Notes under the pieces: model-generated
The model's input: only the letters and a program-made list of their open reading frames with translations
Told to the model about the DNA's origin: nothing
The model's database searches: none
Translations under genes and position numbers: made by a program
Sequence record: PZ386955.1
DNA: 64,000 bases
DNA from: a phage
Direction: 5' to 3' (one strand)
Shown: one piece after another, positions 9,462 through 52,231 of the stretch
Layout: the number at the start of each line of letters is the position of its first letter
How positions within the stretch are numbered: the first letter of the stretch is position 1

Positions 9462-9579
9462 TTGTTTTTCTCCTTTCATTTGGTATGCGCTAATCTTAAC
9501 AAAATAAAAATGTATGTCAATACTTGATTTGAAATTAGTTTCTGGTACTCTGTGGGTATCGTAACAAAAGAGGTTAGAT

Positions 9580-9870
9580 ATGAACATCACACTAGCAACT
9601 AAGAATATTACAGAAACTTTTGATGGTTTTGGCATTATTATTGCTGTTCATGGGCATAACGAAAAATGGTTAGCCTCTTTTGAAGAGGACAAAGAACGCA
9701 ATGTACGTTTGAATGCACCAATCAAAGTTTTACACCAGGTAGGTGAGAATAAGAAACAATGGAGATCATACAAAGAGTGGAACATTACGAACGAGTTAAT
9801 ACACAAACTTGACAAAGTGATAAACATGTTCGACAATGCACCAAGCAGTGCAAAACGTGTTTTACTATAA
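9580..9870 (+). CDS. hypothetical protein
   Basis: 96 aa; first gene of plus block after divergent region. Confidence 0.55.
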   Translation: MNITLATKNITETFDGFGIIIAVHGHNEKWLASFEEDKERNVRLNAPIKVLHQVGENKKQWRSYKEWNITNELIHKLDKVINMFDNAPSSAKRVLL

Positions 9871-13743: not shown

Positions 13744-13961
13744 TATTTTGAAAATTTTTACTTTTATAAAAAGGGGTGTGGGTTTCATGTACGGAAATCC
13801 ACCCTCTGAATAATATATCCAGAGTAAATATTATTCTGTACTCTGTTAATAAAGTATTTAATTTGTTTGTTGGACTATGGTATCTGATCTTTAAAAGGCA
13901 TACTATCTCTTAACTACTATTTATAACAGAACAGTAAAATCATTTTTATAAAAAGGACAAA

Positions 13962-14165
13962 ATTATTTAAAGTTTTTACAGATTTTTGGATACAAATTTT
14001 GAAAATGAAAAGTTCAAGTTTGGTCAAAATTATTTAAAGTTTTTGTACGTATTTCTATCCAGATTTTGAAAATGAAAACTTCAATTTTTTAAAAATTCCC
14101 CAGTTTATTTAAAGTTTTTTTGCCTTTTTCCGTAGAAAAATCAAAAATGAAAAGTTCAATTTCGT
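13962..14165. repeat. three imperfect ~70-bp direct repeats (iteron-like)
   Basis: ATTTAAAGTTTTT ... TTGAAAATGAAAAGTTCAA repeated at ~13962, ~14029 and ~14105. Confidence 0.6.
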
Positions 14166-14180
14166 GTTTTTATAGGTGTG

Positions 14181-14199
14181 TGTATGATAATCATTCTCA
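14181..14199. promoter_or_regulatory. Fur-box-like motif, copy 1
   Basis: TGATAATCATTCTC resembles Fur consensus GATAATGATAATCATTATC; followed by GAGAATGAGAAT and a TGAGAAtttTTCTCA palindrome. Confidence 0.35.
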
Positions 14200-14505
14200 G
14201 TAAGAGAATGAGAATCGTTAGCAAATGAGAATTTTTCTCATTTAGAGAATAACGCGCAGGGGTGGTGTTTGTCTCGCGCTCCCGTGTCCCCTCGCCATAC
14301 AATAAGAATAGCATAACCAACAACAAAAGCAAGCGATTATTTCTATCTTTACATTTCTTTACAAATTTATTTTAGACGAGCTACCGGCGATCAACCTTCC
14401 AACCAGTAGTGCCCTGGTATGTTAGCCCCGCCTTTACGCCGTGGGGGTGGCGCTTCCTCTTCTGTATGTAAAACAGTATAAGCCCGATCCCTGGGCTTGT
14501 CAAGA

Positions 14506-14772
14506 TTATTTTTTGTTTTCTTGCCAGGATAGGACACCTAACCAAAAATACATGTCGCCCCGCGCCCCTGGCGGGATCTTGCTTTCCCCGCCGCCACTGC
14601 AAGCCCATAGATAACCATTTGCGAACGTATCAAAATGATCTATCTCTTCCACCTTATGATCGCCCAGGTTGAGAACGGTTTCAACCTTTAAGCCCGTTGC
14701 GCTTGCTACCTGGTGCACCGTGCCGCCTTGCCAGCCCAATGAGTGCATAAGGTGTAAAGTAGTATTTGTCAT
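14506..14772 (-). CDS. hypothetical protein in GC-rich island
   Basis: 88 aa minus-strand ORF inside plus-strand region, with its own minus-strand promoter, hairpin GCGCCAACCAGGGCGC and RBS AAAGAAAGGG. Confidence 0.4.
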   Translation of the reverse strand: MTNTTLHLMHSLGWQGGTVHQVASATGLKVETVLNLGDHKVEEIDHFDTFANGYLWACSGGGESKIPPGARGDMYFWLGVLSWQENKK

Positions 14773-14850
14773 GGTATCGCCCTTTCTTTGATGTGCGCCC
14801 TGGTTGGCGCGGTAGAAAGATAATAGCCCTTTCCTTTATAGATAGCAAGC
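14773..14850 (-). promoter_or_regulatory. inverted PeSL-like unit (promoter + stem-loop) for ORF 14506..14772
   Basis: Minus-strand TTGCTA-N17-TATTAT followed by GC hairpin and RBS. Confidence 0.4.
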
Positions 14851-15143
14851 AAAAAAGAAATGAAAAAAGATTAAAAAAGGGGGTTGACGTTCCTCACCTG
14901 GTAGCGTATTATTCATCTTGTCGAGGGGGGCGAGGCACAACGACAATAAACAAAAGGAGGGCGCAATGTAGGACGGGCAAAGGTGAGGATCTCCATAATC
15001 CACCGTCACAATAACATTACTTATAAAAGGTTGATAACGATGATCAAGAAAGAAAACAGCTTGACGGTTGGAACGATTAACGCTATCATTCTAGCCGTTC
15101 CATTTTGGATTGTAGTAGCGGTTATTATCTTTTAAAAATATTC

Positions 15144-15200
15144 TTGACAACGTTTTTTAATCTGATAAGATGTATCACATAGGGCGGCAATAGTGCCGCT
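15144..15200 (+). promoter_or_regulatory. PeSL-type early promoter + 5' stem-loop
   Basis: TTGACA, -10-like hexamer, hairpin GGGCGGCAATAGTGCCGCTC, RBS, ATG at 15224. Confidence 0.6.
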
Positions 15201-15223
15201 CATAACAGAAGAGAGAAATAATC

Positions 15224-15496
15224 ATGGCATCATATAGCGCATCAATGATCGTAGCTGGCATCACTGGTAAACCTATGCGCGGTGGCGGATCTTTCGCTAA
15301 TATTAATATTGATGGGCGTTTATCCCTGGACGCAGCGATCACCGTGGCACGGGAAACATTTAAAAAAGAATGTAATTTCAATAAACAAGATTATCTCGGC
15401 TTCGTTATTGAAAAAACCGCGCGCTTTGTTGATTATAAAAGCCCGAAAATGGTTGATACTACACTAAAAGCGCAAGATGTAGCATTTTTGCTTTAA
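15224..15496 (+). CDS. hypothetical protein
   Basis: 90 aa ORF immediately downstream of PeSL unit. Confidence 0.6.
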   Translation: MASYSASMIVAGITGKPMRGGGSFANINIDGRLSLDAAITVARETFKKECNFNKQDYLGFVIEKTARFVDYKSPKMVDTTLKAQDVAFLL

Positions 15497-25232: not shown

Positions 25233-25490
25233 ACCTCAATAAAGATGATAGCTTTTACCTATCAAAAACGTTCACCGAAAAAAGTGAATAGATCGCGGTA
25301 TCGAGCTAATCAAGGAGCAGATGAACAACCATACCATGAAGATCATAAGGCGCTTACAACGCGTTTTAGACCGCTTGTTTTTAATTTCTCCATGTAACTA
25401 TCTGGCAAAAACAGCCTTTTTCTTGTCTTTCCTCTTAAATAATAATCATTCTCATTTGTAGCTGATTATTTATGCAATAAACTGAATAAT

Positions 25491-25514
25491 GCAATAATGA
25501 TAATCATTCTTAAC
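25491..25514. promoter_or_regulatory. Fur-box-like motif, copy 2
   Basis: AATAATGATAATCATTCTT, 16 of 19 matches to GATAATGATAATCATTATC; partial copy at 25441-25458. Confidence 0.4.
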
Positions 25515-25885
25515 TTAAGACCATCTAACCTATAAAATAATAAGCTATCTAACTAAATTAAAGCTAATTATCTCACCTTTATTTATAACTTACTGTTACT
25601 ATCTCATTGATAACCTTATATTAAACAACAATAACTAATATAAATCATTACCAAGCTAAAGATAAGCTATCTAACCTTTAAAACTATAACTATAATCTAT
25701 CGAATTGTTGCACAAAGTAACTATTAAATTGTTAGTAACATTACTAAATAATTAATATCCTATCTATTTATGATCTAATCTTTACCTTCCTATCTATTAC
25801 CTAAATAATCATTTCATACAATAACTATAACAAGAAATATAATTCGCAAGCGTATCATTAGCAGCCTATGCCGGACACATAGGCG

Positions 25886-26031
25886 GCTAATAATAACGCA
25901 ACTACACACCCCACATAATAACCATCACCGATAGTTATTATTTGTGCTTATGTAGCTTGCAACAATTGCAAGCGCAACAATATACATGGTATATTGTATC
26001 CCTTACATTGTTGCGGTGCGTTATTATTAGC
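25886..26031. repeat. nested inverted repeats / palindromes in non-coding region
   Basis: Perfect 15-nt arms GCTAATAATAACGCA inverted ~110 bp apart; internal palindromes GCTTGCAA-CAA-TTGCAAGC and ACAATATAC-ATG-GTATATTGT. Confidence 0.6.
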
Positions 26032-26360
26032 TAATGTTTAGAACATTGGCTATAATATAAGCTATCCAATAATAATAAGCTATACAATAATAAACATAGT
26101 GAATAATGACCCCCGATGATCATAATGCGCCACCTTCCAGGGGGCGCTATGTGAACACAAAGAAACCTTTCTTGTCAAGAAAAATATTGCCACTATTGCG
26201 CAAAATTATTTATATCTGAATAGATGATTTTTCATACTATTGCCCCCAATACTATCCCTATTTGTTGCCCTAACTATTGTCATTTGTTGAGCCTACTTTC
26301 TTAAAAGCGCAATAAATCAGAATTATCTTGATTTTTAGGGCGTTTTATAGTATAGAAAAT

Positions 26361-26384
26361 ATGCAAATGATAATCATTATCAGC
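26361..26384. promoter_or_regulatory. Fur-box-like motif, copy 3
   Basis: GCAAATGATAATCATTATC, 17 of 19 matches to Fur consensus. Confidence 0.4.
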
Positions 26385-26548
26385 TATCTTCCACGGGTGG
26401 CACTATTTCACGCAGGATCATTTCATTTGGCAAGGTGTATATAGATGTTTAGACTTGCCAAGCCATTGATTTACTTAGAATTTATCTGTTTTGTTGTGAG
26501 TAGTACCTTTCTTGCTCAGAAAATAATCAAAAGTCTTATAAGTCATTG

Positions 26549-26577
26549 AATGATAATGCAAATGATAATTATTCTCA
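26549..26577. promoter_or_regulatory. Fur-box-like motif, copy 4 (tandem half-sites)
   Basis: GATAATGCAAATGATAATTATTCTC. Confidence 0.35.
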
Positions 26578-26950
26578 TTGATATTTGAGGGGGACGGTCG
26601 GCAGAAATCGGGGGGCGCTGAAAATCGCGTTAAGCACCTCTCGCAAGCGAGCAGTATTTTGCGGCAAGTTATTGATATTATTGACTTTACGCTTATGAAA
26701 AGGGGGTGTGTCGAAATAAATCGGGTATACCGGAAAAATTTTGTGGCATAGATATTTATTTGTCTATATTATGTACAAAGGGGTGTGTTAAAAATAATAG
26801 GTATATATAGAATAATTGATAGGGAATACCTATACTAATTCCTATACTAAATCCTTCATTAATGATGTTTCTATGGTGCTGTTCTTGTAATAGATGAAAA
26901 GACGCTGTATGATGTGTGGCATGAAACGTAAATTTATAAAGGAGTCTGAT

Positions 26951-51964: not shown

Positions 51965-52231
51965 TTACTCCGCAATCTGAGCCATGAATTCACGTAGTTC
52001 GGAAAAACCTCCTACGTGGGTTAGATGTTCACCATCTTCCACAAAAATTTGAGGAAAGGTACGTGGCAGAACACCTGTTTTCTCTAAAACCAGATTCTGA
52101 ATCTGATCTAAAGAATAGTCTTCATCTAAGGTAAGATATTTAAAATCCTGTTCACGCTGTTCCAGTAGAATCTTAGCGTTAGTGCAGAAAGGACAATTTG
52201 GTTTACCGTAGATAATAAAATTCATTTTCAC
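51965..52231 (-). CDS. glutaredoxin (NrdC/NrdH-like)
   Basis: CPFC active site in YGKPNCPFCTNAK, ~88 aa. Confidence 0.8.
   Translation of the reverse strand: MKMNFIIYGKPNCPFCTNAKILLEQREQDFKYLTLDEDYSLDQIQNLVLEKTGVLPRTFPQIFVEDGEHLTHVGGFSELREFMAQIAE

Follow-up and report, generated by a model that had tools for sequence, protein, structure and literature searches.

Short sequences resembling the operators of the iron-responsive regulator Fur are repeated in the non-coding DNA of a strictly virulent coliphage, which raises the question of whether they are genuine protein-binding sites and, if so, which protein reads them and to what end. The locus was examined in a window of 64,000 nucleotides (record PZ386955.1; all coordinates count from the first letter of this stretch). 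An original prediction, made from the same letters, had named four such motifs and proposed control by host Fur or mimicry by a phage-encoded regulator.

The phage and its relatives

The window phage is a Justusliebigvirus (phi92-like) coliphage with a GC content of 37%, and its closest relative is phage arall (99%). Relatives within the Stephanstirmvirinae are large virulent E. coli myoviruses with genomes of about 146–150 kb. The 3 kb around the boxes matched 122 phage records, the best of which belong to Justusliebigvirus and other Stephanstirmvirinae. Scans of IMG/VR and of metagenomes for relatives each yielded only four to five true homologues, the remainder being mostly chance matches. 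Across 5,426 complete E. coli genomes no similarity was found except for matches of box length, and the window phage is therefore not a prophage; capture of the region from a host promoter was rejected because these matches stop at the box edge. Records labelled as Campylobacter, Pseudomonas and Acinetobacter phages (MG065639, MG065645, MG065656, MG065689; OR584014; OP562383) are 88–94% identical over the non-coding DNA, and their host labels look doubtful.

Small early-type ORFs occupy the plus strand across about 10–40 kb of the window. The leftmost early gene products match PHROG families of unknown function, and searches of Pfam and PHROGs assigned no function to the early proteins downstream of the boxes. 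A scan of the window for tRNA genes found none, and neither non-coding region matched an Rfam family at the gathering threshold or at E values up to 1.

Fur-type boxes in the non-coding DNA

To avoid circularity, the Fur matrix was limited to host sites. It is symmetric and was built solely from 11 E. coli K-12 operator sites (3–7 mismatches to the consensus) taken from the fepA-fes, fepD-entS, fepB-entC, fhuA, cirA, fecA, fecI and ryhB regions. Under their own matrix the 11 host operators score 8–18.6 bits, or 3.5–15.7 bits with each left out in turn. The phage sites, in order of score, are as follows.

26363–26381: box A, GCAAATGATAATCATTATC, 21.4 bits, 17/19 to the consensus
26558–26576: box B, GCAAATGATAATTATTCTC, 18.4 bits, 15/19 to the consensus
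25493–25511: box C, AATAATGATAATCATTCTT, 17.3 bits, 16/19 to the consensus
14204–14222: box E2, GAGAATGAGAATCGTTAGC, 17.2 bits
14180–14198: box E1, GTGTATGATAATCATTCTC, 16.4 bits, 15/19 to the consensus
25435–25453: box D, 14.5 bits
14221–14242: box E3, with the palindrome AATGAGAATTTTTCTCATT at 14224–14242, 11.4 bits
Starting at 26552, 26564, 25441 and 14221 (the last being E3): overlapping or weaker boxes

With the overlapping and weaker copies included, about nine boxes form three clusters (14180–14242, 25435–25511 and 26363–26585), and all of them lie outside ORFs. The four motifs first noticed are all present within 1–3 nt of the positions given for them, their non-coding location was borne out, and the consensus scores of 17/19 for box A and 16/19 for box C were reproduced. 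The count of four was too low, as further boxes occur at 25435–25453, 14204–14222 and 14221–14242. TGCAAA, said to stand often before the motifs, does so at boxes A and B and, in approximate form, at C and E3.

Box A outscores every one of the 11 E. coli operators used and includes a perfect 7-1-7 palindrome, TGATAATCATTATCA, at 26368–26382. Measured against the Fur-box consensus GATAATGATAATCATTATC, the phage sites carry 2–5 mismatches versus 3–7 in the eight K-12 promoters, which places them at the level of host operators. Matches of at least 14 bits number seven in the window compared to 0.3 in Markov shuffles, in agreement with the earlier judgement that such motifs are unlikely to arise by chance. 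Six of them fall in the two non-coding stretches (2133 nt, 31% GC), for which composition-matched shuffles of the same DNA give an expectation of 0.03. The shared core ATGATAATYATTMTC, with one mismatch allowed, occurs five times where 0.06 occurrences were expected from shuffles. The ~82 kb of the arall genome beyond the window contain no match of at least 14 bits (maximum 13.9).

One further match of at least 14 bits is found in the whole ~146 kb genome, at 52211–52229 (GATAATAAAATTCATTTTC, 17.7 bits). It overlaps the first codon of a glutaredoxin gene that is on the minus strand and belongs to the same cluster as the ribonucleotide reductase genes, and the match could be due to chance because it spans an AT-rich translation-initiation region.

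For the clustered boxes, the 31% GC content of their surroundings and the AT-rich Fur consensus would favour coincidental matches, but AT-richness does not explain six sites where 0.03 are expected, and the boxes are conserved across genera and subfamilies. We consider chance a negligible explanation. The sequence evidence points strongly to Fur-type operators, and the boxes are very probably selected protein-binding sites.

Boxes A and B in the terminal repeat

The phi92 record begins at window position 26290, and from there the window aligns without gaps to the annotated 343-bp DTR-L (1–343) of phi92 and to its DTR-R. The record of Klebsiella phage phi1_175008, from another lineage, starts at the nucleotide homologous to the phi92 start. 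Boxes A and B lie 74–92 and 263–293 nt from the phi92 left end and, being located within the direct terminal repeat, are present at both ends of the virion DNA. The original prediction had not remarked on this location, the most telling part of their context. The following elements were recognised in this region.

26290–26632: direct terminal repeat, by homology to that of phi92
26328–26360, plus strand: candidate promoter P_A (TTGATT at 26328–26333, 17 nt, TATAGA at 26351–26356)
26546–26585, plus strand: composite operator B (hexamers TTGAAT, GATAAT, GCAAAT, GATAAT, TATTCT, CATTGA)

The predicted +1 of P_A falls within box A, and GAAAAT at 26355–26360 is an alternative −10 for this promoter; neither −10 candidate is a strong one. 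In three genera ATCTTGATTT, upstream of box A, is unchanged despite diverged surroundings. Composite B contains three overlapping 19-mers (26552–26570, 26558–26576 and 26564–26582) that score 11.5, 18.4 and 11.6 bits, respectively, and it overlaps an invariant −10-like GATATT (26580–26585). Since it ends in this element, the composite would take up the −35 and spacer of a promoter directed rightward, P_B. A similar geometry is found at the ryhB operator, where the Fur box lies between −35 and −10. In classical Fur repression the boxes overlap −35, −10 or +1, and the phage boxes overlap predicted elements of the same kind. Both P_A and P_B are putative promoters with moderate sigma-70 consensus matches, and both are absent from the list returned by a generic promoter scan. 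Strong box-free sigma-70 promoters are found nearby, for example at 14884, 15061 and 15144, so that Fur would affect no more than part of early transcription.

Between box B and the first gene, a G-rich repeat of the form (A)AGGGGGTGTGT...AAATCGG occurs at 26587–26611, 26700–26724 and 26777–26801. It is also present at 13768–13785, and in phage A7_1 GGGGGTG stands just before a Fur-type box.

Box positions are conserved across genera while their sequence turns over. Lineages were compared using the invariant CATTGATATTTG as the position anchor; across six phages from three lineages, no part of the upstream region is better conserved than the segment TAAGTYATTGAAT ... CATTGATATTTG. Box B is found at −18 from this anchor in Justusliebigvirus, Phapecoctavirus and the Klebsiella-phage lineage, and its lineage-specific changes retain Fur-type hexamers (GATAAT to GAGAAT). 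Inside the terminal repeat, BLAST similarity between genera does not extend beyond box B and the 50 nt that follow it. The position of box A is −213 for Justusliebigvirus and −203 for Phapecoctavirus, with diverged flanks, and the Phapecoctavirus box at this place has a different sequence (CTGAATAATAATCATTCTC versus GCAAATGATAATCATTATC). One or two boxes corresponding to C and D are found at −930 to −1200 from the anchor in every lineage examined. Within the genus, variable columns make up 7% of box positions versus 12.4% of the flanks, a difference that is not significant (p = 0.15).

Boxes C, D and E in untranslated regions

Box D lies directly 3' of the last small ORF and opens a 0.9-kb untranslated right-end region, which contains nested inverted repeats and precedes the right terminal repeat. 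The 19 nt at 25438–25456, AATAATAATCATTCTCATT, are identical to the E. coli ryhB operator. Box C overlaps the −35 of a predicted promoter of moderate quality (TTAACT-17-TAAAAT, 25510–25538). Further into the region, at 25840–26035, a perfect 15-nt inverted pair (GCTAATAATAACGCA / TGCGTTATTATTAGC) is separated by 116 nt and encloses two further palindromes, the whole being flanked by repeats of ATAAGCTATCTAAC. These nested inverted repeats may be an origin or a packaging element.

Boxes E1–E3 lie in a second stretch devoid of annotated genes (13744–15224, 1.5 kb), where E1 and E2 form an inverted repeat. The number of boxes in this cluster varies among relatives from one to five or six. The homologue of E3 in SSE121 and pEa_SNUABM_55, which belong to a different subfamily, the Vequintavirinae, is a perfect 19-bp palindrome (AATGAGAATCATTCTCATT), and A7_1 has a near-perfect core (TGAGAATTATTCTCA) at this site. 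TTGAAT precedes the box in SSE121 and pEa_SNUABM_55, and NRRAAT follows it in all lineages. This arrangement suggests a plus-strand promoter, with a −10-like element that is poor (CGGAAT) in two lineages. The E boxes adjoin the following features.

14250–14468 (about 220 nt): conserved non-coding element, its left edge abutted by the E boxes
14503–14475, minus strand: strong sigma-70-type promoter reading into this element (TTGACA at 14503–14498, 17 nt, TATACT at 14480–14475), with an upstream A-tract

Identity across the conserved element ranges from 67 to 98% between Stephanstirmvirinae and Vequintavirinae. The minus-strand promoter retains a good −10 in every lineage (CATAAT, TATAGT, TACAAT), and the element is more likely to be transcribed from the minus strand, opposite to the TTGAAT-box-NRRAAT arrangement. 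RNAalifold on ten sequences gave weak covariation on both strands, and in single-sequence folding neither strand was better than shuffles (z +0.9 and +1.3); we therefore make no claim of a structured RNA. A RyhB-like sRNA was also considered for this element and rejected, similarity to RyhB being no more than expected by chance.

Two further observations concern the surroundings of the element. A hairpin in the spacer of the minus-strand promoter doubles as the terminator of an upstream minus-strand gene of 88 aa (14506–14772, PHROG 19316). Immediately upstream of the E boxes, 13942–14162 comprises three direct repeats of 67–79 nt, each including ATTATTTAAAGTTTTT and a small palindrome, TTGAAAATGAAAAGTTCAA; related repeats occur in Phapecoctavirus and another form in the Vequintavirinae, and they could be iterons or promoter arrays.

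Host Fur as the likely binding protein

In architecture the phage sites are like the E. coli Fur operators (ryhB, entC, cirA, fhuA and iucA), which also combine a 19-bp palindrome with a hexamer array. Box B resembles the cirA operator (GATAATGCAAAYGATAA), in addition to the ryhB match at box D. The phage boxes differ from the E. coli operators in their setting, as they precede early genes of unknown function, not iron-uptake genes, and are situated in untranslated DNA and the terminal repeat of a virulent phage.

The phage-encoded regulator offered in the original prediction as an alternative could be a Fur-family mimic, and this version was not upheld. A tblastn search with E. coli Fur found no homologue in the window or elsewhere in the arall genome (lowest E value 3.6), and the motif is also carried by unrelated T5-like phages. 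A phage protein from outside the Fur family might still recognise the palindrome, with the likeness to Fur boxes arising by mimicry or coincidence. Most early proteins here have no known function, and the preferred phage half-site ATTCTCATT is slightly unlike the textbook ATTATCATT, as this explanation would allow. However, a matrix derived from host operators alone puts these sites at the top, ATTCTC half-sites are also present in bona fide host operators (fhuA and ryhB), and the motif recurs in contigs of jumbo-phage size as well as in T5-like phages, with which the window phage has no pre-early protein in common. We regard recognition by such a protein as improbable.

The distribution of the motif in other phages was examined in IMG/VR, where the exact palindrome AATGAKAATCATTMTCATT was found in at least 120 viral contigs, including contigs of 345–347 kb (loci L081 and L120). 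Many of these contigs may be prophages carrying iron-related cargo. Among the large matches listed, T5-like genomes carry box arrays outside long ORFs. In T5-like Salmonella and Escherichia phages, tandem Fur-like boxes spaced about 35 nt apart, each after AAAAAGCGGAAT, are located in the terminal repeat (loci L092 4877–5063, L085 3162–3676 and L154 240–264), and 554 phage records match this stretch. The first of these loci corresponds to Salmonella phage SP01, whose array spans genome positions 326–926. Phage T5 itself (NC_005859) has five matches of at least 14 bits in its left repeat, compared to 0.06 expected. Six Fur-like boxes of TTAAATGAGAATCATT units, the best three scoring 15–17 bits, lie at 9549–9718 within the annotated injection stop signal, beside DnaA boxes and near the calculated shear point, and another strong box occurs at 228–252, some 230 nt inside the left end. 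Homologues of the 17 proteins encoded in the T5 left repeat are all absent from the window phage. A motif that is common to unrelated phages of the same hosts, and that matches the operators of host Fur, points to host Fur, which is probably the protein that binds the boxes.

A broader reading is that Fur-box arrays are a convergent cis-element in the terminal and untranslated control regions of unrelated large virulent enterobacterial phages, with Fur as a general host factor at DNA entry and the palindromes of the T5 injection-stop region as Fur sites. It would embrace the phi92-like and phAPEC8-like Stephanstirmvirinae, the rV5-like Vequintavirinae and the T5-like Demerecviridae including the T5 injection-stop region, and possibly jumbo phages. 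We put this forward as a possibility that is on the whole unlikely.

Possible roles of the boxes

Of the roles that host Fur could have here, we favour repression of P_A and P_B, the promoters of the terminal repeat, in response to iron, because what relatives share is the location of boxes A and B on promoter elements; this preference is a tentative one, held with slightly less than even confidence. In this model, Fur dimers loaded with Fe2+ would occupy the boxes and assemble into oligomers on site B with its several hexamers. Fur on box A would cover the predicted start of P_A, and on composite B the spacer and −35 of P_B. These promoters, at the left end of the packaged DNA, would read into the leftmost early genes, so that an iron-replete host would damp the terminal early promoters and an iron-starved host would release them. 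The bulk of early expression would come from the other, strong box-free sigma-70 promoters. Boxes C and D and the E cluster would be further Fur sites with less clear targets. Repression of this kind cannot be essential, since these phages plate on iron-replete laboratory media.

The boxes could instead act in bulk, titrating host Fur as the phage DNA replicates and derepressing the host Fur regulon. The dose would be about nine boxes per genome (about 12 per virion DNA, the repeat being duplicated) multiplied by hundreds of copies, and the benefit would be iron uptake, RyhB iron sparing and expression of nrdHIEF, with iron supplied to the iron-dependent ribonucleotide reductases of the phage. 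The phage does encode NrdA/NrdB, NrdD/NrdG and glutaredoxin. Box quality above that of host operators, the variable number of E-cluster boxes among relatives and the lack of an obvious promoter link for some boxes all agree with titration, and a precedent is available in the Fur titration assay (FURTA, Stojiljkovic et al. 1994), in which a single Fur box on a high-copy plasmid reportedly suffices to derepress Fur-controlled genes. Titration, however, does not require boxes A and B to keep their positions on promoter elements, and its benefit depends on ongoing host transcription and translation in a short lytic cycle. T5, with a similar array, degrades host DNA early (A1 annotation), and titration therefore cannot be a shared role in that phage. 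For the window phage we judge it to be a rather remote prospect.

A third role would be architectural, with Fur on arrays in or beside the terminal repeat aiding a DNA transaction in cis and not iron-regulated transcription. Candidates include DNA entry or pausing, end protection, circularisation or concatemer formation, replication initiation and terminase recognition, with IHF at lambda cos and the DnaA boxes of the T5 injection-stop region as analogies. Several placements agree with this: boxes A and B are 74–293 nt from the phi92 genome end and duplicated at both ends, boxes C and D open the inverted-repeat-rich untranslated region before the right repeat, and the arrays of SP01 and T5 are in the terminal repeat and inside the injection stop signal, respectively. 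The T5 arrays are not at obvious promoters, and operator function may thus not be the general role. The T5 injection-stop region is also like the locus studied here in being untranslated, repeat-rich, situated in the terminal repeat and furnished with boxes for host factors; it spans about 1.2 kb at a distance of about 9.6 kb from the end, and 7–8 DnaA boxes are found in it. Against an architectural role, the E cluster is 12 kb away from the repeat, we know of no way in which Fur could take part in packaging or injection, and DnaA boxes (TTWTNCACA) are not enriched in the window, with 11 found versus 10.9 expected and none in the non-coding regions. To our knowledge, two-step injection has not been reported for phi92-like phages. 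We consider the architectural role unlikely, and repression of P_A and P_B remains our preferred reading.

Comparison with known systems and significance

Fur boxes on phage DNA are known from temperate phages, where the stx1 promoter is one case. Another is sitABCD on lambdoid phages (PMC6969025). These temperate-phage boxes control lysogenic-conversion cargo of the host iron economy, whereas those described here are in the core regulatory DNA of a strictly virulent phage. The closest functional analogy is provided by the Bacillus phages phi29 and Nf, which have Spo0A boxes at early promoters and near the genome ends; in phi29 their function has been shown by experiment, the boxes suppressing the lytic cycle when the host is in a poor physiological state (PMC2731898). 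In both cases a lytic phage carries several operators for one global regulator of its host, at early promoters and near its ends, and keeps them in its relatives. The likeness is one of analogy and not of homology, with the function in the window phage being a predicted one, and the signals differ: phi29 reads the sporulation phosphorelay and the window phage would read iron, active Fur reporting iron sufficiency.

A 2020 preprint on T5 injection describes the palindromes of the stop region as having an unknown function, one that it says cannot be guessed, and mentions neither Fur nor iron (Davison 10.1101/866236); the rV5 genome paper likewise mentions neither. Fur boxes in phi92-, phAPEC8-, rV5- or T5-like phages are not described in the full-text literature searched, which covered only a minority of subscription journals, and an earlier mention may exist. 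Fur boxes on temperate-phage cargo were thus known already, and we found no prior description of such boxes in the terminal repeat and untranslated regions of a virulent phage.

If Fur binds these boxes, a strictly lytic phage would sense the iron status of its host within the first few hundred bp of its DNA, and the efficiency of infection would differ with iron and with fur. This would bear on how phages fare in infected tissue and in the gut, where iron is limited; several relatives, among them the phAPEC8-like phages obtained on avian pathogenic E. coli, have been investigated for possible therapeutic use. The motif also gives a testable identity to the conserved terminal-region repeats of T5-like phages. 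If the interpretation is correct, Fur would join Spo0A, LexA, DnaA and IHF on the short list of host regulators in phage control DNA.
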